Translations under genes and position numbers: made by a program
NCBI GenBank assembly: GCA_020354045.1
Contig: CP070639.1
Coordinates: 3,412,535 to 3,476,534 of the forward strand
Origin: Anaerolineales bacterium
Lineage (GTDB): Bacteria > Chloroflexota > Anaerolineae > Anaerolineales > UBA4823
Length of the DNA stretch: 64,000 nucleotides
Direction of reading: 5' to 3'
Shown here: positions 42,919 to 56,959 of the stretch, in pieces
Position numbering within the stretch: the stretch's first letter is position 1
Layout of the letters: the number at the start of each line of letters is the position of its first letter
The notes under the pieces: model-generated
Databases searched by the model: none
What the model was told of the DNA's origin: nothing
The model's input: the letters and a program-made list of their open reading frames with translations, nothing else

Positions 42919-44775
42919 TCAAACCAGCAATAACTCTTTCGCCTTCTTGGTTTGTTTGCCGCGCGCCTCGGTATCTAAGATACGTTTACGGATACGGTAG
43001 GAAGCTGGAGTGACCTCCAGCAGCTCGTCATCCGCCAGGTACTCAATAGCCTCATCCAGACTCATCCCCCTCGGCGGTGTCAGGCGGATCTCCATCTCCC
43101 CCCGTGACGAGCGCATGTTGGTCAGGTGCTTCTTTTTACAAACATTTACTACCAGATCACCCGGGCGGGCATTTTCTCCCACCACCATGCCCTCATAAAC
43201 TTCCACGCCAGGTCCAAGAAACAGGCTGCCACGCGCTTCGGCGCTACTCAGTGCATAGGCTGTGGTCGTACCGGCTTCCCAGGCAACCAACGAGCCCGTT
43301 CCCCTTGTCGCCATCGTCCCAGCCATCTCGTCGTAACCATGGAAGATGGTGTGCAGTATGCCCGATCCACGCGTGGCAGTTAGAAACTGGTAGCGAAAAC
43401 CAAGCAACCCGCGCGTCGGGACAATATAGACCAGGCGTGTGGTACCTTGCCCGGTGTCCTGTATATCCAGCATGCGACCACGCCGCGCTCCCAGCATCTC
43501 CACCACCACACCAACGGTCGGATTGCTGGTCTCAACATGGATTTCCTCGTAAGGCTCAAGCAACGAGCCATCTTCAGCCTGCCGGAATATCACCTCCGGC
43601 CTGGAAACCTGAAATTCATACCCTTCTCTACGCATGGTTTCAATCAGGATACCCAGGTGCAGCTCACCTCGTCCTGAGACCAGGAAATTCTCAGCCGAAT
43701 CCGTCTCCTGTACGCGCAAAGCGACATTGGTGCGCAGCTCATTGAAGAGACGCTCGCGCAGTTTGCGGGAAGTGCTCCAGGTTCCTTCTTTACCGGCGAA
43801 GGGTGAAGTATTTACACCGAAGGTCATGCGTACGGTCGGCTCTTCCACCTTAATGGGTGGTAACGAATTTGAGTGTTCTGGATCAGCGAGTGTCTCGCCT
43901 ATGGCGATATCCTCCAGACCAGCCAGTGCGATGATCTCCCCTGCTTCGGCTTCGTCTACTTCTATTTTCTCCAGGCCTTGGTGGACCGATAAGTAACGCG
44001 CCCGGTCGGGAAAATTATGACCATCCAAAGTGAGGCGCGCCAGGCTTTGTCCAGCCTTGATCCTGCCACTAAATATGCGACCAACTGCAGTGATGCCGCG
44101 GTAATCATCATAACCCAAGGTGGTAACCAACATTTGTAAGGGTAAATCGGGATCTACCAGAGGAGCCGGGATATGGTGCAGAATCGCCTCAAACAAGGGT
44201 TGCAGGTCCGGACCTAACTCCGGAGTTTTACCTGCCTGTCCAGTAGTGGCCTTGGCATAGATCACCGGGAAATCAGCCTGTTCATCCGTCGCGCCCAACT
44301 CGATGAACAGGTCAAAGGTCTGGTTCAGCACCCGCTCGGGATTGGCATCTTTCCGGTCAATTTTGTTGATGACCACAACCGCCTTGTGCCCGCGCTCCAG
44401 CGCTTTCTTCAGCACAAAACGCGTCTGCGGCATGGGTCCTTCAGCTGCATCTACCAGCAAGAGTACCCCATCGACCATGTTCATCACGCGTTCGACTTCA
44501 CCACCAAAATCTGCATGGCCGGGTGTGTCAACAATATTAATCTTCACTTCCTGTCCATCAATGGGGTCAGGAATAATAATAGCAGTGTTCTTCGCCAGGA
44601 TGGTGATGCCGCGCTCACGTTCGAGGTCGTTCGAATCCATGATGCGCACAGCAACCTGCTGGTTCTCCCGGAAGATGTGCGCTTGGCGCAGCATGCCATC
44701 CACCAGTGTGGTTTTGCCGTGGTCCACGTGAGCAATAATCGCGATATTACGCAGGTCAGTTCTTTCGTGCAACAT
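42919..44775 (-). CDS. typA: Translational GTPase TypA/BipA
   Basis: [18 protein letters not shown]...[17 protein letters not shown]...NKIDR and EF-G-like C-terminal domains. Confidence 0.95.
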
Positions 44776-44833: not shown

Positions 44834-44862
44834 CAAAAAACCCCGGCAAAGATACCGGGGCT
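44834..44862 (-). terminator. Intrinsic terminator ending the aromatic operon
   Basis: The minus strand reads CCCCGG-UAUCUUUG-CCGGGG followed by UUUUUUG, about 100 nt after the aroQ stop. Confidence 0.6.
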
Positions 44863-44964
44863 CCGGCGTGCGAGCAGAATGTTATCAGAATGTGACCAAT
44901 TTGAACAGGGTCATCTTGCAGCCACTGCCATTTCAGACCAGTCTGCATGAAGCCCACGACCAAA

Positions 44965-45402
44965 TCATTCGCTCAGGAGGTGCACCATAGCCTGCAATCC
45001 CAGCCAGTAGGAGCGCCAGCCAAACCCCACAATCTTGCCACTGCAAACCGGTGAGATGAGCGATTGATGGCGGAACTCCTCACGGGCATAGACATTCGAG
45101 AGATGCACTTCAATGACTGGGAGTCCAATAGCTGCCACTGCATCCCGCAGAGCAACCGAGGTGTGTGTATAGCCGCCTGGATTAAACAGCACTCCGTCCG
45201 CCCAGTTACGGGCTTGATGCAAAGCATCGATCAAGGCGCCCTCGCTGTTGGATTGGAAACTCCGTATTTCCAGGCCAAGCTCCACTCCAGCTACAGCCAG
45301 CCTCTCATTAATCTCTTTGAGAGTCAAAGAGCCATACACTTCAGGCTCACGGCTCCCGAGCAGGTTGAGATTTGGCCCATGAAGAACAAGGATGGCAGGC
45401 AT
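44965..45402 (-). CDS. aroQ: Type II 3-dehydroquinate dehydratase
   Basis: ILVLHGPNLNLLGSREPEVYG...NPGGYTHTSVALRDA...IEVHLSN. Confidence 0.95.
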   Translation of the reverse strand: MPAILVLHGPNLNLLGSREPEVYGSLTLKEINERLAVAGVELGLEIRSFQSNSEGALIDALHQARNWADGVLFNPGGYTHTSVALRDAVAAIGLPVIEVHLSNVYAREEFRHQSLISPVCSGKIVGFGWRSYWLGLQAMVHLLSE

Positions 45403-45442
45403 TACAACACCTCCTCAGGCTGCCCTAAATGTGTCTCGGATA

Positions 45443-48148
45443 TCACTCTTGAGCCTGCAATTCGCCAGGTTGAGAAATCAGCTGAATCTTGCCCATCGTC
45501 CCGTCGACCCGAATAAGCTGGCCTGTTTTCAATCTCGTGGTAGCTTGATGGACCCCAACCACTGCCGGGATGCCATACTCGCGTGCCACTACCGAGCCAT
45601 GAGTCATCATCCCACCTACTTCAGTGATCAATCCGCCAGCTGCCATGAACAGCGGAGTCCAGGCGGGATCAGTGCCTGGACAGACCAGGATCTCACCTGG
45701 GGCAAGTTGAGTGCTACGTGGATCAAGCACCACGCGCACAACCCCTTCAACCACCCCTGGCGAGACAGGGCTACCAGTGATGACAACCTGGTTGTCTGTA
45801 CTGGAACCTATGCCCTCGTAATACACGCGACCGTCGCTGACCAGCACACGCGGCACTTGCTTGCGGCGCAGCTCGCGTTCGTAAGCGAGGCGGCGCTCGA
45901 TAATGAGCTCTCGCCAAGTTTGAGCGACCCCCGGGAGAGGCGATTCCTTGCGTGAGAGCGCCTGCAGTTCATTGAGCTGCAGGAAAACCATGTCATCGGG
46001 GTGTTCGAATGTACCAGCGCTGACAAACTCACGCCCCACCTCCAGCAGGGCTTGTCGCGCAACACCCATCATGCGCACCGCGAAAAACTTGGGGCTTTCC
46101 CGCGCCCCCATTAAGATCCGGATGCGCCTGGCAGCTGCGCGCACAACCTTTGCTCTAAACCAGCCACCCGGCAGCTGGCGTGCGGCATCTACCAGCGTTT
46201 CTATCGCCTCTTTGGCTGCCTGTTCGCCGCGTTTAAACAACATGTCCGGGGCGTTATTTATATCAATGCTCAGGTAACTTTGCAGGGTGTGCATAATGGC
46301 TGTCGGTTCTTCACGCCAGCGAGGTTGCCCGAAATCAATTTCCCCTATGCCGCGCATCCCATAGGCTTGCATGAAGTGTGCGATGGCAGTTTGAGCAGCG
46401 GTAGGTAAAGCTCCTTCCAGGTAGTGACTGGTAAGCGTTTTTGCACCTTCTTCAAGAAAAACAGCTCGAGACTGAGCATCCATCCGAATTTCCAGCGCTA
46501 TTTTCCAGAGCGCAAGATCCATTTCAGTGGTCACATTATGGGGCAGACCACGAGTAACCTCCAATGCCAGCTCGCGCTTACCACCTGTGATTTTCGTGAG
46601 CAGGTTGAGTGCGCCCATACTTGGTCCAAATAGTGGAACAAATTTTGGCAGCAAAAAAGGGAAAGCATCCGCGACACGGGTCTGCATAAAGGCTAAGACA
46701 TTAGCCAGCCGTCCAAAATGGTCCTCAGCAGGGGCGATCGTCGCCATACTCAGGTAATCTTTAATGCTCTTATCGAACTCCGACCGCTCTTTTTCGGGAT
46801 TCAGCATAGCTTTTACAAAACGCGGCAACATTGGCAGGAAAAAACGAGCCAGACGGTGCAGGGTGCTTAATTTGATCTTTCCCGCCCCCGCCCCCAGGGC
46901 TGACTCAGCACTGAGCGGCTTTAAGATTTGGGCAACACTCGGCTCGACAAATCCTAACAAGGCACTAAACAGGCGATTTCCAACAGGATGCCGGATCATG
47001 TCACTGATTTTCACCCAGATGCGTTCGCCGGAGACAACAAAAACATCCTGCTGATCATAGTTTATGTGTACACCCAAGACTGTGCCCATACCGGCAAGTA
47101 CGGTACGGATGACATCACGCCCTAATGGCGTGATCGGACCCACCACACCCTGTACCGTACCAAATGAAAACCAGATGATGAGGGGATCAAAGGACACTTC
47201 GGGAATGGGGAAGAGGGAAGTGATCGGGCGCGACTGGAGCAGGTATAGCTCTCCATTCGCAATCGCCCATTCGATATCCTGTGGTGTGCCATACTCCATC
47301 TGGACCTGGTTTCCAAGCTCAACAAGCTGCTCAATTTCATCCAGATTGAGTGTTCGCCGTGCCGCTGCATGTTCCGGAATAGATTCCACGCCACCACCTG
47401 CTTTGCTACGCGTGGAGATTTTCTTCTCGCCGAGAGTCTGCTGGACCACCGCACCATTACGCGTATCCACTACAAAATGGTCGGGCTCCACTTGTCCAGA
47501 GACGAGCGCTTCGCCCAGACCAAATGTAGCATCGATCACCACCTGGCTGCGTAAGCCTGTCAGCGGATTTGCCGTAAACAAAACGCCGGACACATCGCTA
47601 TGCACCATTCGCTGCACAACCACAGCCAGCGCGGTCTCATCATGCTGGATCCCATTTCGCATGCGGTAGCCGATAGCGCGCCCGGTCCACAAGCTACTCC
47701 AGCAATTGACGATAGCCTCGAGTAATTGTTTTTCGCCAAGGATATTTAAGAAGGTGTCTTGCTGCCCGGCAAAGGATAGATCAGGCAAGTCTTCTGCCGT
47801 GGCAGAGGAGCGCACCGCGACAGGGGTCTGCTCTCCGAAACTGTCGCCATACGCAGTTAGGATGGCATTTTCCAGTTCCACAGGCAACTTCCCAGTTGAA
47901 AACGCAACCCGAATTTTGGTTGAAACTCGCTCCAACACTTCCACATCGTCAGCAGAAATGTCTTCTAGTGCAACCTGGATCATCGTTTGTAACTGGTTAG
48001 CTGCCACAAAATGAGAATAAGCATCTGTGGAGATTACAAACCCGTGTGGTACGCGGAATCCGGCTCGAGCAAGGCGAGCGAGGTGGGAGCCTTTGCCACC
48101 GGCATTTGAGAGAGTCGTTTCTTTAGAGGTGAAAGGGAGAATGGTCAT
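45443..48148 (-). CDS. PEP-utilising phosphotransferase with rifampicin-phosphotransferase-like architecture (N-terminal ATP-grasp PPDK_N domain, long middle region, C-terminal swivel phospho-His domain)
   Basis: N-terminus SNAGGKGSHLARLARAGFRVPHGFVIST...RSSATAEDLPDLSFAGQ. C-terminus GEILVCPGTDPAWTPLFMAAGGLITEVGGMMTHGSVVAREYGIPAVVG. No PEP/pyruvate TIM-barrel domain is visible. Confidence 0.8.
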   Translation of the reverse strand: MTILPFTSKETTLSNAGGKGSHLARLARAGFRVPHGFVISTDAYSHFVAANQLQTMIQVALEDISADDVEVLERVSTKIRVAFSTGKLPVELENAILTAYGDSFGEQTPVAVRSSATAEDLPDLSFAGQQDTFLNILGEKQLLEAIVNCWSSLWTGRAIGYRMRNGIQHDETALAVVVQRMVHSDVSGVLFTANPLTGLRSQVVIDATFGLGEALVSGQVEPDHFVVDTRNGAVVQQTLGEKKISTRSKAGGGVESIPEHAAARRTLNLDEIEQLVELGNQVQMEYGTPQDIEWAIANGELYLLQSRPITSLFPIPEVSFDPLIIWFSFGTVQGVVGPITPLGRDVIRTVLAGMGTVLGVHINYDQQDVFVVSGERIWVKISDMIRHPVGNRLFSALLGFVEPSVAQILKPLSAESALGAGAGKIKLSTLHRLARFFLPMLPRFVKAMLNPEKERSEFDKSIKDYLSMATIAPAEDHFGRLANVLAFMQTRVADAFPFLLPKFVPLFGPSMGALNLLTKITGGKRELALEVTRGLPHNVTTEMDLALWKIALEIRMDAQSRAVFLEEGAKTLTSHYLEGALPTAAQTAIAHFMQAYGMRGIGEIDFGQPRWREEPTAIMHTLQSYLSIDINNAPDMLFKRGEQAAKEAIETLVDAARQLPGGWFRAKVVRAAARRIRILMGARESPKFFAVRMMGVARQALLEVGREFVSAGTFEHPDDMVFLQLNELQALSRKESPLPGVAQTWRELIIERRLAYERELRRKQVPRVLVSDGRVYYEGIGSSTDNQVVITGSPVSPGVVEGVVRVVLDPRSTQLAPGEILVCPGTDPAWTPLFMAAGGLITEVGGMMTHGSVVAREYGIPAVVGVHQATTRLKTGQLIRVDGTMGKIQLISQPGELQAQE

Positions 48149-48186
48149 CGGAATATACCCGCAAATTATATTCTTCTTCCTTGTCT

Positions 48187-49782
48187 TTAGCGCCCCTCTT
48201 CCAGAATCATGCCAGGCTCGTCTACCTCGATGCCATGAAGCACTTTTCCTATTCGAACAGGCAGGACAAAGCGCAACTTGCCATTGGCGCGCTTCTTATC
48301 CACACCCATATACTGCAATAGCATCTTGTCCTCCAGGTGTGCCGGAATATTCATGGGCAATCCAAGTTTGGACAAGGAATCTTCCACTTGAGACGTTAAA
48401 TCAGCTTGAGCTATTCCCAAGCGTTCAGACAGCCGTGCTGCAGCTAAAATACCAATCGCCACCGCCTCTCCATGACGCAGGCTGTAATCCGCTGCCCGCT
48501 CAACCGCATGTCCGAGCGTGTGTCCCAGGTTGAGCACCTCTCTGAGACCGCGCTCGTAGGGGTCGGCTTCAATGATGCCGATCTTTACCGCCATTGCCCG
48601 CCGCACCAGCCAATCCCAATCTGCGGAAATCACTTTCCAGCCAAGCTTGCAATGAGCGAACAGCTGCGGGTCGGAAATCAAGGCGTGCTTGACCACTTCA
48701 GCCATGCCACTGCGCAGCTCTTCCAGAGGCAAGGTCGCCAGGGTATCCGGGTCCACCAGCACCAAGCGCGGCGGGTAGAACGCCCCAATCAGGTTTTTTC
48801 CTTGCGGCAGGTCAGCACCGGTCTTGCCTCCCAGGCTGGCATCCACCATGGACAGCAAGGTGGTTGGCACACAAACCCAGCTGATGCCGCGCAGGTAAGA
48901 GGCTGCAGCAAATCCAGCCAAATCCCCCACCACACCTCCACCCAAGGCAAGGATTGTGCTGGTGCGATCCAAACCGGCATCCAATGAGCTGGCCCAAAGG
49001 CGCTCAATTGTCTCCAGGGTTTTGAATTTTTCCCCAGCTGGAATTTCCACCAGGCTGGCATCATAGCCTGCAGATCGGAGGTTAGCTAAAACTTGAGGGG
49101 CATACAAGGGGGTAACATTGCTGTCGCTAACCACCAGCACGGGACCCCCCAATCCTGCTACACTCAAGCATTGGCCAAGCTCATCCAGACTGCCAGACCG
49201 AATACGCACCTCGCAACCGGGAAACCCAGGTTTTTGCATGCCGCGCAGGTAAAAACGCCCCAACGCAGCCTGCACCTGCCAGGTTACTTCCTCGACACTA
49301 TTAGCTCCCACATCAAGCTGCCAGGGAAAAGAGGCATAATGACCAGCGCGCTCAGCCAGCAGATTGGACAAATGAGCGGAGAGATCACCTGCCAAGAGTG
49401 GGCGTGTGACTGATGCGGATTTCAGACGAGCCTGCAACACCGGGGCTGGCGCGCGCAAGCAAAGAACAATTCCGGCAGCTTCTGCTCTTGCCCGCAAGCG
49501 CGGATCAAGCAGGGCTCCACCTCCCAGGGCAATCACCCGTTCCTGCCCATCCAGAAGAGTTTCCAGGACCTGCGCCTCCAGGTGACGGAAGCCCACTTCG
49601 CCCTGCTGGGAAAATATCTGGGGGATAGCGAGTCCACTTCGTGCTTCAATCTCGCTATCCAGGTCCGTAAAGGGTATATGCAGTGCTTGAGCCAGCGCCT
49701 GGCCCAATGTGCTTTTACCTGCACCTGGCGGTCCATATATTAAAACAGGCGCATACAAGGAATGCCCGGCGTTATTGATCAT
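48187..49782 (-). CDS. aroKB: Bifunctional shikimate kinase / 3-dehydroquinate synthase fusion
   Basis: N-terminus LIYGPPGAGKSTLGQALAQAL...FTDLDSEIE...GEVGFRHLE. C-terminus LALGGGVVGDLAGFAA...VPTTLLSMVDASLGGKTG...LNLGHTLGHAVE. The start is 49782 or 49794; both overlap the aroC stop. Confidence 0.9.
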   Translation of the reverse strand: MINNAGHSLYAPVLIYGPPGAGKSTLGQALAQALHIPFTDLDSEIEARSGLAIPQIFSQQGEVGFRHLEAQVLETLLDGQERVIALGGGALLDPRLRARAEAAGIVLCLRAPAPVLQARLKSASVTRPLLAGDLSAHLSNLLAERAGHYASFPWQLDVGANSVEEVTWQVQAALGRFYLRGMQKPGFPGCEVRIRSGSLDELGQCLSVAGLGGPVLVVSDSNVTPLYAPQVLANLRSAGYDASLVEIPAGEKFKTLETIERLWASSLDAGLDRTSTILALGGGVVGDLAGFAAASYLRGISWVCVPTTLLSMVDASLGGKTGADLPQGKNLIGAFYPPRLVLVDPDTLATLPLEELRSGMAEVVKHALISDPQLFAHCKLGWKVISADWDWLVRRAMAVKIGIIEADPYERGLREVLNLGHTLGHAVERAADYSLRHGEAVAIGILAAARLSERLGIAQADLTSQVEDSLSKLGLPMNIPAHLEDKMLLQYMGVDKKRANGKLRFVLPVRIGKVLHGIEVDEPGMILEEGR

Positions 49783-50962
49783 TATCCGCTTCATCCGGCC
49801 AAAAGGTGTGGGCGATAGCATCCATCGGCAGGTCGGAGAGGTGTGCGCGCCGCAGCGCTGCAAAACGCGGGAGCATCTCGTCCAACGCATCCCCGCCTAA
49901 TTTTTCAAGCAATGCTTCCGCCAGCACAATAGCGATTACCGCCTCCAAAATAGGCACTGCACGCGGCACCGGGCAAAAGTCAGAACGCTCATAACGAGTC
50001 TCCACCAGACGTCCCTCAGCAAGATCAACCGATGGCTGTGCAGTCAATGTGGTGGCTATTGGTTTCATAGCAGCCCGGATACACAAGGGCTGCCCGGTAG
50101 TGATGCCACCCTCCAGACCTCCAGAGCGATTCGTAGTACGGACTATCTCATCTGCATCTAACCTTATGGCATCCTGCACCTGGGTTCCAGGTAAGCGAGC
50201 GTTCTGAAAAGCAGGACCGATCTCCAACCCCTTGACGGCTGGCACACTTAAGACCGCAGCTCCCAGGCGCGTCTCCAAGCGGCGATCCCAATGCACGTGC
50301 GAGCCCAACCCAGGAGGCACACCCAAGGCAATAATCTCGACCACACCTCCAAGCGTATCACGGGCGCGGATAATTCCTTCGATGCGAGCACGCATGCTCT
50401 CAGCAGCCTGTGGATTGGGGCAGCGCACATCGGAATCATCAGCCCGCTCCAGGCGCTCTTCCAGCGTCAGCATACTTAAATCAGCCTCTGTCTCACCAAT
50501 CGCGGTTACATAACCACCAATACGCACACCAAAAGCAACGAGCAGCTGCTTGCAAACCGCGCCAACTGCCACACGGGCAGCGGTCTCGCGCGCCGAGGCA
50601 CGCTCCAAAGATGGGCGCAGGTCCCGGTAGCCGTACTTCAGAGCACCTGTCAGGTCAGCATGACCCGGACGCGGTATGGTGAAAGGATCAATGGCTTTAC
50701 CTCGCCACCTGGTGTGATCGCGGTTTACTATTTGCATCGCCAGCGGAGCCCCTGTAGTAACACCTGCCATCACACCCGCCAGGATGCGAACGCGGTCCTG
50801 CTCAATTTTCATCCGGGGTCCAGCCCCATAGCCTCTCTGCCGACGAGCGAGCTCTGCATGGATGGCAGCGTTATCCAGTTCTAAACCAGCTGGCAGACCT
50901 TCCAAAATGGCTAACAGGGATGGTCCGTGGGATTCGCCTGCGGTGAGGAATCTAAGTGGCAT
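49772..50962 (-). CDS. aroC: Chorismate synthase
   Basis: MPLRFLTAGESHGPSL...QRGYGAGPRM...RPGHAD...SARETAARVA. Confidence 0.95.
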   Translation of the reverse strand: MPLRFLTAGESHGPSLLAILEGLPAGLELDNAAIHAELARRQRGYGAGPRMKIEQDRVRILAGVMAGVTTGAPLAMQIVNRDHTRWRGKAIDPFTIPRPGHADLTGALKYGYRDLRPSLERASARETAARVAVGAVCKQLLVAFGVRIGGYVTAIGETEADLSMLTLEERLERADDSDVRCPNPQAAESMRARIEGIIRARDTLGGVVEIIALGVPPGLGSHVHWDRRLETRLGAAVLSVPAVKGLEIGPAFQNARLPGTQVQDAIRLDADEIVRTTNRSGGLEGGITTGQPLCIRAAMKPIATTLTAQPSVDLAEGRLVETRYERSDFCPVPRAVPILEAVIAIVLAEALLEKLGGDALDEMLPRFAALRRAHLSDLPMDAIAHTFWPDEADNDQ

Positions 50963-56763: not shown

Positions 56764-56791
56764 AAAAAAACGCGAGGCCGTTAGCCTCGCG
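56764..56791 (-). terminator. Attenuator terminator: CGCGAGGC-UAACG-GCCUCGCG + U7, 28 nt upstream of aroH
   Basis: 8-bp GC-rich stem (56791-56771), extendable by A5/U5, followed by UUUUUUU (56770-56764). It is located inside the 5' leader, not after a gene. Confidence 0.7.
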
Positions 56792-56818
56792 TTTTTGGTT
56801 AGATATGTGTCCAATCGC

Positions 56819-56899
56819 TTAAACGCTTCTAACGGCAGATTTGTCATTGATGCCGTAATAATAAAAAGCGTAATAGCGAACGAATGAGATGTTGTTCAT
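56819..56899 (-). CDS. 26-codon aromatic-rich leader peptide MNNISFVRYYAFYYYGINDKSAVRSV
   Basis: Hand translation of the minus strand. 5 Tyr + 2 Phe of 26 residues, concentrated as Y-Y-A-F-Y-Y-Y. It lies about 25 nt downstream of the predicted TSS. Only a weak purine-rich RBS (AAGAAG) is present. Its last 5 codons form the antiterminator strand. Confidence 0.55.
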   Translation of the reverse strand: MNNISFVRYYAFYYYGINDKSAVRSV

Positions 56900-56930
56900 C
56901 AAAATTCTTCTTTTTAATTTCGTAAACCGA

Positions 56931-56959
56931 ATTCTACTCGCAGGGGATTAAGCTGTCAA
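56931..56959 (-). promoter_or_regulatory. Near-consensus sigma70 promoter TTGACA-17-TAGAAT for the aromatic operon
   Basis: Minus strand: TTGACA (56959-56954), an exact 17-nt spacer, TAGAAT (56936-56931). Confidence 0.6.

Follow-up and report, generated by a model that had tools for sequence, protein, structure and literature searches.

The aro operon of the Anaerolineales bacterium studied here carries, between aroKB and aroQ, a gene for a protein that resembles rifampicin phosphotransferases (RPHs). The presence of this RPH-like gene inside the operon is confirmed. We consider it probable that its product is a small-molecule dikinase of the RPH superfamily, made of one chain and with a remodelled substrate pocket, and that the gene entered the aro operon through one old insertion and has no dedicated role in the pathway. 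The dikinase belongs to a large, uncharacterised clade that is typical of Chloroflexota and lies within the known RPH-type superfamily. The original prediction, made from the letters of this window (the whole stretch of 64,000 nucleotides analysed, from contig CP070639.1), was partly supported: its view of the architecture was right, and what it inferred from a conserved operon position was not borne out.

An RPH-type dikinase gene between aroKB and aroQ

The features of the locus are collected in Table 1. Reading of the open reading frame and the junctions bore out a 901-aa protein between aroKB and aroQ, with 38-40 nt gaps and on the same strand as both neighbours. The downstream spacer contains a strong Shine-Dalgarno sequence for aroQ, GAGGAGG, and stands where the congeneric genome has a TGATG stop/start overlap. 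According to Pfam and NCBIfam, the operon already encodes all steps of the common pathway, including a shikimate kinase domain.

Table 1. Coordinates of the dikinase gene, its domains, its neighbours and the control elements of the aro operon, in positions of the window
Feature	Positions	Strand	Basis and remarks
RPH-like small-molecule dikinase gene	45443..48148	minus	ORF with ATG start, 901 aa
ATP-grasp (PPDK_N) domain, ~residues 1-315	47204..48148	minus	Pfam residues 16-311, E 4.5e-100
All-helical middle (substrate-binding) domain, ~residues 316-785	45794..47203	minus	AlphaFold2 secondary structure; profile alignment to 5FBS
Phospho-histidine swivel domain, ~residues 786-901	45443..45793	minus	Pfam PEP-utilizers 816-886, E 2.5e-25
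Spacer aroKB/dikinase gene	48149..48186	minus	38 nt (sequence), to aroKB stop
Spacer dikinase gene/aroQ	45403..45442	minus	40 nt (sequence), to aroQ start
aroKB, shikimate kinase / 3-dehydroquinate synthase fusion, upstream neighbour	48187..49890	minus	Pfam SKI + DHQ_synthase + DHQS_C; TIGR01357
aroQ, type II 3-dehydroquinate dehydratase, last gene of the operon	44965..45402	minus	Pfam DHquinase_II; TIGR01088 above cut-off
Operon control region	56766..56959	minus	Promoter + leader ORF + attenuator
Operon promoter TTGACA-17-TAGAAT	56959-56931	minus	Consensus scan
Tyr/Phe-rich leader ORF	56899-56819	minus	Direct sequence reading
Attenuator terminator	56796-56766	minus	Scan
Intrinsic terminator after aroQ, closing the operon	44837..44864	minus	Scan; 12-bp stem, T-tract

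[quoted passage not shown] The motif GGMMTHGSVVAREYGIPAV is present in the protein, and the catalytic His850 is encoded by the codon CAT at 45599-45601. The best PDB match was the Listeria RPH, with an E-value of 1e-134 for the single sequence and 1e-211 for the profile, and the profile alignment to 5FBS spanned chain residues 16-867 of 867. With the Listeria RPH 5HV1 the predicted fold gave a full-length match (Foldseek E 4.5e-53, TM 0.82/0.86). Overall, the domain order in Pfam, in the 5FBS alignment and in the 5HV1 fold is that of the RPH-type small-molecule dikinases rather than that of PEP synthase, as had been proposed.

Conserved catalytic residues and a remodelled substrate pocket

We examined the residues of the dikinase in a MAFFT alignment, taking the residue roles and the list of rifampin contacts from PMC4844700. 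Ten residues (K19, R113, T132, E293, Q333, T540, R683, E684, K687 and H850) were invariant in 159 homologues and four RPH references. Lys19, Arg113, Thr132 and Glu293, whose codons were checked, correspond to Lys22, Arg117, Thr136 and Glu297 of RPH-Lm, and the ATP-grasp residues showed no variation among those of the 164 aligned homologues that have a residue in the column. The middle domain keeps the phosphate-handling residues Gln333, Thr540, Arg683, Glu684 and Lys687. Accordingly, the residues that mark the superfamily, namely the His of GG-x-x-T-H-G, the ATP-site Lys/Arg/Thr/Glu and the block-9 Arg-Glu-x-x-Lys, are all present across the 159 homologues.

The rifampin contacts are a different matter. 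In RPH these are Gln336, Tyr351, Thr354, Pro356, Ala357, Met359, Val368, Leu387, Leu478, Phe479 and Met673 (PMC4844700). Both residues that hydrogen-bond rifampin are gone in the dikinase, Gln336 being replaced by Val332 and Tyr351 by Ile347, and Met673 is replaced by Ala690. All four reference RPHs have Thr354 where the dikinase has Val350, and Pro356/Ala357 are Q/D; single positions in 354-359 are uncertain, as the loop here carries a 16-17-residue insertion after RPH position 354 (dikinase residues ~351-366) that HMMER, BLASTP and MAFFT placed differently. Since the reading of the loop depends on the alignment, we limited the pocket argument to the robust positions 336, 337, 351, 523, 666-673 and 825. 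Two contacts are retained (V368 = V, L387 = L) and two more in type only (M359 -> F, F479 -> L). In the MAFFT alignment, the conserved rifampin contacts of a rifamycin-inactivating phosphotransferase are therefore not preserved as a set. Compared with true RPHs the pocket is remodelled, and the substrate is therefore probably something other than a rifamycin, as far as can be judged from the sequence.

The family scores showed a similar distance. Identity was 33% to the Listeria rph and 34% to the Streptomyces rph (both PGAP-named reference genes, from records mis-filed as 'plasmid'), below the >42% identity to RPH-Lm of clade A of the RPHs (Stogios et al. 2016, PMC4844700). The NCBIfam model RIF_Ptrans_rph (NF041857) gave 625.8 bits against an equivalog cut-off of 999, and NF000283 gave 460 against 1700. 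No NF041857 loci were returned among the control genomes. The closest database homologues were P0001 (99% identity) and P0002 (71%).

These results bear on the strongest alternative, that the protein is a genuine rifamycin-inactivating phosphotransferase, a resistance enzyme that sits in the aro operon by chance. The top structure and fold match is RPH-Lm over the full length, the dikinase retains the Arg-Glu-x-x-Lys block, the Gln and the catalytic His, and several hydrophobic contacts are kept in type (V368, L387, M359, F479). Homologues lie beside TetR regulators at 12/160 loci or MFS transporters at 9/160, many of them are named 'rifampicin phosphotransferase' by JGI auto-annotation, and clades B and C, which fall outside clade A, are predicted to be RIF-active (Stogios et al., PMC4844700). 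However, the low identity and subthreshold score, the lost hydrogen bonds, Thr354 -> Val and the loop insertion all speak against this alternative, and two similarly distant homologues, that of C. difficile in clade N (PMC4844700) and Haloferax PspR, are inactive on rifampin. We regard a resistance enzyme as unlikely here. The clade holds thousands of database sequences, many of them auto-named 'rifampicin phosphotransferase' or 'PEP synthase'. The rifampin-binding site of the clade is remodelled, so such names, and the resistome counts built from them, are probably incorrect here.

The operon position is not conserved

It had been suggested that the position in the aro operon is conserved and implies a dedicated role, and comparative synteny did not bear this out. 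Of the 45 order-level relatives that carry aroKB and aroQ on a single contig, ~40 have the two at most ~80 nt apart, and none of the 45 has an RPH-like gene between them; the RPH-like homologues in these genomes are found on a different contig or at a distance of 350 kb. The genus has one other species, G001, in which aroKB and aroQ overlap as TGATG and the operon is intact without the dikinase gene. A close homologue is present in 27 of the 136 family genomes, and an aro gene lies within 1.5 kb of the homologue at 0/50 of the family and order loci fetched. Among the 160 loci of the closest homologues, from genomes and metagenomes and with a downstream flank of 500 nt or more in 139, just one (L162) shares the aro arrangement; it is a 3.1-kb contig that starts within the dikinase gene, so that the upstream aroKB side is outside the contig. 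With these counts, the gene does not belong to the conserved gene set of the aro operon in Anaerolineales.

No conserved neighbour hinting at a substrate was found among the 160 loci, where the TetR genes form the largest neighbour cluster, followed by a CBM96/metallophosphatase protein, LytR and MFS with 9 each. The sister locus L040 lies amid unrelated Wood-Ljungdahl-type genes. Other genes do occur at the aroKB/aroQ junction: an NAD-epimerase (G044), a DUF3179 protein (G045) and an FkbM methyltransferase (G046), unrelated genes from three other Anaerolineales families.

The original prediction had stated that absence from this position in all relatives would indicate a recent insertion. The absence essentially holds, because relatives lack the gene at the aroKB/aroQ junction; the recency does not, given a saturated dS. 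In a tree anchored with RPHs only, the gene of the source genome (G000) pairs with L162 with 100% support within a 55-member Chloroflexota clade, whose remaining members have other genomic contexts. Between the two, dS was 1.8 (saturated) and dN/dS was 0.12, and the gene is under purifying selection. Its GC3 of 0.55 is inside the range of the aro operon. Recent horizontal transfer was rejected, as the GC3 fits the operon and the nearest relatives are all from Chloroflexota. Because dS is saturated against the one syntenic relative, the insertion is old; it is lineage-specific, a single event in the ancestor of the source genome and one metagenomic relative. It would have landed at a junction that is open to unrelated co-directional genes in other Anaerolineales. 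The case calls for caution: the operon position resembled functional linkage, but comparative synteny shows that the gene was inserted in one lineage, at a junction that tolerates such additions.

Probable transcription with the operon and the question of a pathway role

Consensus scans and the sequence itself describe an aro unit with a single promoter, a single attenuator and a single terminator at its end. The scan found no promoter-like or terminator-like site flanking the dikinase gene at either junction, and neither scan nor sequence revealed insertion scars at the aroKB/dikinase and dikinase/aroQ junctions. The lack of such sites makes co-transcription with the operon probable, as far as consensus scans can tell, and since the gene lies downstream of the control region, its expression would follow the Tyr/Phe leader attenuator. 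We read this shared transcription as a side effect of the insertion rather than a sign of a pathway role.

A dedicated role in the aromatic pathway would mean that the dikinase phosphorylates an intermediate or analogue, or inactivates an antimetabolite, with the Tyr/Phe attenuator inducing it on starvation. The location within the operon speaks for such a role, as the spacers are short and the gene has neither a promoter-like nor a terminator-like site to itself; two diverged lineages have also kept the position, with the gene under purifying selection, and two-component relatives in the superfamily phosphorylate phenols. On the other hand, aro linkage is absent at 159/160 closest-homologue loci and at all 50 family and order loci, the congeneric operon does without the gene, three unrelated genes occupy the same junction in other families, and every common-pathway step is already encoded, shikimate kinase included. 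Since an old lineage-specific insertion lies at a junction that accepts unrelated genes elsewhere, we judge a dedicated role quite improbable.

That the gene has stayed in place under purifying selection in two lineages with saturated synonymous sites would fit an advantage of regulating it together with aromatic amino-acid synthesis. A bolder version, which we hold to be very improbable, is that the aro operon captured the dikinase because the enzyme inactivates a natural shikimate or aromatic antimetabolite or phosphorylates a phenolic of the tyrosine branch, the attenuator co-inducing both. If this were true, an inhibitor would starve the cell of Tyr/Phe, the leader attenuator would be read through, and the pathway enzymes would rise together with the inactivating kinase. 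This would amount to feedback-induced self-protection without a dedicated sensor.

Proposed mechanism and relation to known systems

For the preferred reading, a small-molecule dikinase without a pathway role, catalysis can be modelled on RPH, PpsAB and HpeHI. By analogy, the ATP-grasp domain would bind ATP, and His850 of the swivel domain would attack the beta-phosphate while the gamma-phosphate leaves as Pi. The phospho-His domain would then swing over to the helical middle domain, where Arg683, Glu684, Lys687, Gln333 and Thr540 may place the phosphate for transfer to a hydroxyl of the bound small molecule. The predicted products are AMP, Pi and a phospho-ester. We infer that a hydroxylated compound, either hydrophobic or phenolic and other than a rifamycin, is the most likely substrate, xenobiotic or scavenged. 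Once found, the clade's substrate would extend the range of specificities among small-molecule dikinases.

The closest characterised system is RPH itself (RPH-Lm, PDB 5FBS/5HV1; B. subtilis Pps = RphT). Like the dikinase, it consists of an ATP-grasp domain, a helical domain and a C-terminal swivel His domain, with a full-length fold match and all residues of both phosphotransfer steps conserved. The dikinase departs from it in its low identity and score below the NCBIfam cut-off, in the replaced residues Gln336, Tyr351 and Thr354, in the loop insertion and in its genomic context, a biosynthetic operon. HpeHI, CreHI and PpsAB (phenylphosphate synthase) belong to the same superfamily and have the phospho-His swivel mechanism in common with the dikinase; HpeI (PDB 9GOJ) matches its ATP-grasp domain, and the substrates of these enzymes are aromatic hydroxyl compounds. 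By contrast, they are made of two polypeptides encoded in catabolic clusters, whereas the dikinase is one chain with no catabolic partner genes nearby. PMC13099321, citing Hsu et al. 2023, describes B. subtilis YvkC, a flavonoid phosphate synthetase, as a structural homologue of RPH in one chain, with activity on plant polyphenols and not on rifampicin. Its reported activity shows that the family includes substrates other than antibiotics.

PspR of Haloferax mediterranei has an RPH-like architecture and ~35% identity to RPH-Lm, makes no rifampin phosphate and is reported to bind DNA via its middle domain, and it demonstrates that a regulatory role is possible in an RPH-like family. That the dikinase, too, is a regulator of RPH-like descent without catalytic function is nevertheless hardly credible: its catalytic residues are fully conserved, and nothing about it hints at DNA binding. 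The invariance of the residues for both half-reactions in 159 homologues, together with the dN/dS of 0.12, points to a working enzyme.

PEP synthase and pyruvate phosphate dikinase have ATP-grasp and swivel domains homologous to those of the dikinase, and older automatic annotation would name the protein a PEP synthase (PpsA), which would feed PEP to DAHP and EPSP synthesis. Although the top NCBIfam scores came from 'phosphoenolpyruvate synthase' models (the PRK06241 series, all below their own cut-offs) and the PDB depositors gave RPH entries the PEP synthase name, we give this reading practically no credence, and the architecture refutes it: the expected absence of a PEP/pyruvate-binding TIM barrel was upheld, with no Pfam match to PEP-utilizers_C (PF02896) anywhere in the 901-aa protein; the His domain is C-terminal and not central; Foldseek gives the middle domain an RPH fold; the true PEP synthase models scored below cut-off (TIGR01418, 408 against 740; NF005057, 410 against 598) and covered just the ATP-grasp and swivel parts; and RPH enzymes do not use pyruvate (PMC4844700). 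MarK (PMC12624787) was set aside as a relative, its UPF0261 fold being unrelated.

A rifampin phosphotransferase fold between aroKB and aroQ

The dikinase gene lies between aroKB, encoding a shikimate kinase/3-dehydroquinate synthase fusion, and aroQ, the last gene of the operon, with the gaps on either side as originally described. It is the one full-length copy in the genome (a single 3.59-Mb contig), which the named homologues assign to the Anaerolineales (Chloroflexota). Pfam placed a PPDK_N domain at residues 16-311 and a PEP-utilizers swivel domain at residues 816-886, and found no PEP/pyruvate TIM barrel. The best solved relative is the Listeria rifampin phosphotransferase (RPH-Lm; single-sequence E 1e-134), to which a profile search aligned the whole chain (E 1e-211). 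An AlphaFold2 model built from a 54-sequence alignment (pLDDT 84, pTM 0.79) superposed along the entire chain on the Listeria RPH structure 5HV1 (TM 0.82/0.86). On this evidence, the original prediction was right about the three-domain plan and in setting the protein apart from PEP synthase.

Features of the aro unit and of the aroKB|aroQ junction in other families (window positions unless a locus is named)
Feature	Position	Strand	Remark
Promoter of the unit	56959-56931	minus	strong; consensus scan
Tyr/Phe-rich leader ORF	56899-56819	minus	MNNISFVRYYAFYYYGINDKSAVRSV; 26 codons, 5 Tyr and 2 Phe
Attenuator terminator	56796-56766	minus	14-bp stem, just downstream of the leader ORF
Putative AroH-type chorismate mutase	56732-56378	minus	first gene past the attenuator; assigned from N-terminal sequence alone
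aroKB, AroK-AroB fusion	48187-49890	minus	stop 38 nt upstream of the dikinase gene
Dikinase ORF	45443-48148	minus	901 aa
aroQ, type II dehydroquinase	44965-45402	minus	start 40 nt downstream of the dikinase gene
Terminal terminator	44864-44837	minus	
NAD-dependent epimerase/dehydratase	L199:2321-3289		at the junction in G044
DUF3179 protein	L200:1055-2569		at the junction in G045
FkbM-type methyltransferase	L201:1093-2286		at the junction in G046

All residues implicated by Stogios et al. (PMC4844700) in the two phosphotransfer steps of RPH-Lm are present in the dikinase and invariant in 159 homologues: K19, R113, T132, E293, Q333, T540, R683, E684, K687 and H850 (respectively Lys22, Arg117, Thr136, Glu297, Gln337, Thr523, Arg666, Glu667, Lys670 and His825 of RPH-Lm). 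Because every one of them is kept, the enzyme would be expected to turn ATP and an acceptor hydroxyl into AMP, Pi and the acceptor-O-phosphate by way of the phospho-His swivel domain.

Elsewhere in the genome, outside the window, a 257-aa open frame (G000:C1:3094994-3095539; locus L002) resembles the dikinase over the C-terminal residues 705-894 alone (37% identity). This frame seems to encode a free-standing swivel-His-domain protein, possibly half of a two-component dikinase.

Rifamycin is probably not the substrate

Sequence comparison suggests that the dikinase is probably not a rifamycin phosphotransferase. It shares 33% identity with the PGAP-named rph of Listeria and 34% with that of Streptomyces, both values under the 42% boundary of the validated RPH clade A (PMC4844700). 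The score for the NCBIfam RPH equivalog was 626 bits, short of its cut-off of 999, and the best NCBIfam model, PRK06241.1-3, was likewise below its cut-off (730 vs 945). In a 164-sequence alignment, the rifampin hydrogen-bonding residues Gln336 and Tyr351 of RPH become Val332 (Val in 125 of the 159 homologues) and Ile347, Thr354, invariant in four reference RPHs, becomes Val, and Met673 becomes Ala. The rifampin-binding loop is also lengthened by 16-17 inserted residues in all members of the clade. Since several hydrophobic rifampin contacts are conserved in type and the exact place of the loop insertion varies with the aligner, the pocket is remodelled rather than abolished.

Two similarly distant homologues, Haloferax PspR (35% identical to RPH-Lm) and a C. 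difficile clade N protein (PMC4844700), are inactive on rifampin. Non-antibiotic substrates in the superfamily include phenols, used by the two-component enzymes HpeHI, CreHI and PpsAB, and flavonoids, given as substrates of B. subtilis YvkC in work cited in PMC13099321. Within the known superfamily of RPH-type small-molecule dikinases, the protein falls in an uncharacterised clade that is typical of Chloroflexota. Its substrate is most probably some hydroxylated hydrophobic or phenolic compound rather than rifamycin.

On the large B. cereus plasmid p30052_1 (locus L207), an RPH-family gene lies between genes for a macrolide-family glycosyltransferase and a TetR/AcrR regulator, a neighbourhood typical of antibiotic modification; the Anaerolineales dikinase loci are unlike it.

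The aro position is probably an old, lineage-restricted insertion

The position inside the operon had been taken as conserved, and this had suggested a dedicated role. In the order, aroKB and aroQ shared a contig in 45 of 60 GTDB species representatives and were no more than about 80 nt apart in about 40 of the 45; in G001, the only other species of the genus, the aroKB stop and the aroQ start overlap as TGATG. RPH-like homologues in these order-level relatives are on another contig or 350 kb off, the best with 54% identity. A close homologue occurs in 27 of the 136 other genomes of the family, and no aro gene and no typA lay within 1.5 kb at any of the 50 loci fetched from the family and the order. 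We also collected, from species genomes and metagenomes, the 160 loci with the closest homologues (45-68% identity) and their flanks of up to 8 kb; the downstream flank reached 500 nt or more in 139. The aro arrangement was found in only one, L162, a 3.1-kb metagenome contig. It starts inside the dikinase gene (68% identity), and 38 nt past this gene comes aroQ (79%), with typA (93%) next. No conserved neighbour was found among the remaining loci, the largest neighbour cluster being a TetR regulator (12 loci), followed by an MFS transporter, a LytR protein and a CBM96/metallophosphatase protein (9 loci each). Conservation of the position thus failed, and the distribution of orthologues counts against a link to aromatic metabolism.

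In a tree of 164 homologues, the dikinase and its L162 counterpart paired with 100% support, nested in clades of 4 members (96%) and of 55 Chloroflexota members (99%) whose remaining members are all in non-aro contexts; the sister locus L040, for example, has DUF362, pterin-binding, RACo and CdhD genes as neighbours. Between the pair, dS is 1.8, with synonymous sites saturated, and the dN/dS of 0.12 equals the aroQ value. The GC3 of the dikinase gene (0.55) lies in the operon range of 0.50-0.60. Together, these values and the tree pairing point to one old insertion of a Chloroflexota-native gene that two lineages have kept intact and the congeneric G001 lacks. With this event, aroQ exchanged translational coupling for its own strong Shine-Dalgarno sequence.

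Because three other Anaerolineales families carry three different, unrelated, co-directional genes at the same place (table), the junction ahead of the last aro gene looks like a recurrent landing site for cargo genes. The place of the dikinase gene is best read as an old, lineage-restricted insertion into a permissive junction rather than as the sign of a conserved function in the pathway.

On the 3' side of aroQ, typA/bipA follows in this genome (window 42919-44775) and in L162; in G001, the genes after aroQ encode a phosphonate-binding protein, in convergent orientation, and an aldo/keto reductase (L198, G001:C99, 4819-5817). Within the genus, then, the operon has undergone rearrangement at its 3' border as well.

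Operon setting and control

The minus-strand unit comprises the leader and ten genes, in the order putative chorismate mutase, DAHP synthase, tyrA, aroA, aroE, aminotransferase, aroC, aroKB, dikinase and aroQ. Since consensus scans found no promoter-like or terminator-like sites flanking the dikinase gene, it is most probably co-transcribed with the aro unit under the attenuator. Given this co-regulation and the retained position, there is still a small chance that the dikinase has a real link to aromatic metabolism.

The longest possible ORF for aroKB reaches 119 nt into the end of aroC (window 49772-49890, minus strand). Because relatives align with it only from about residue 40-50, the real start probably lies further downstream.
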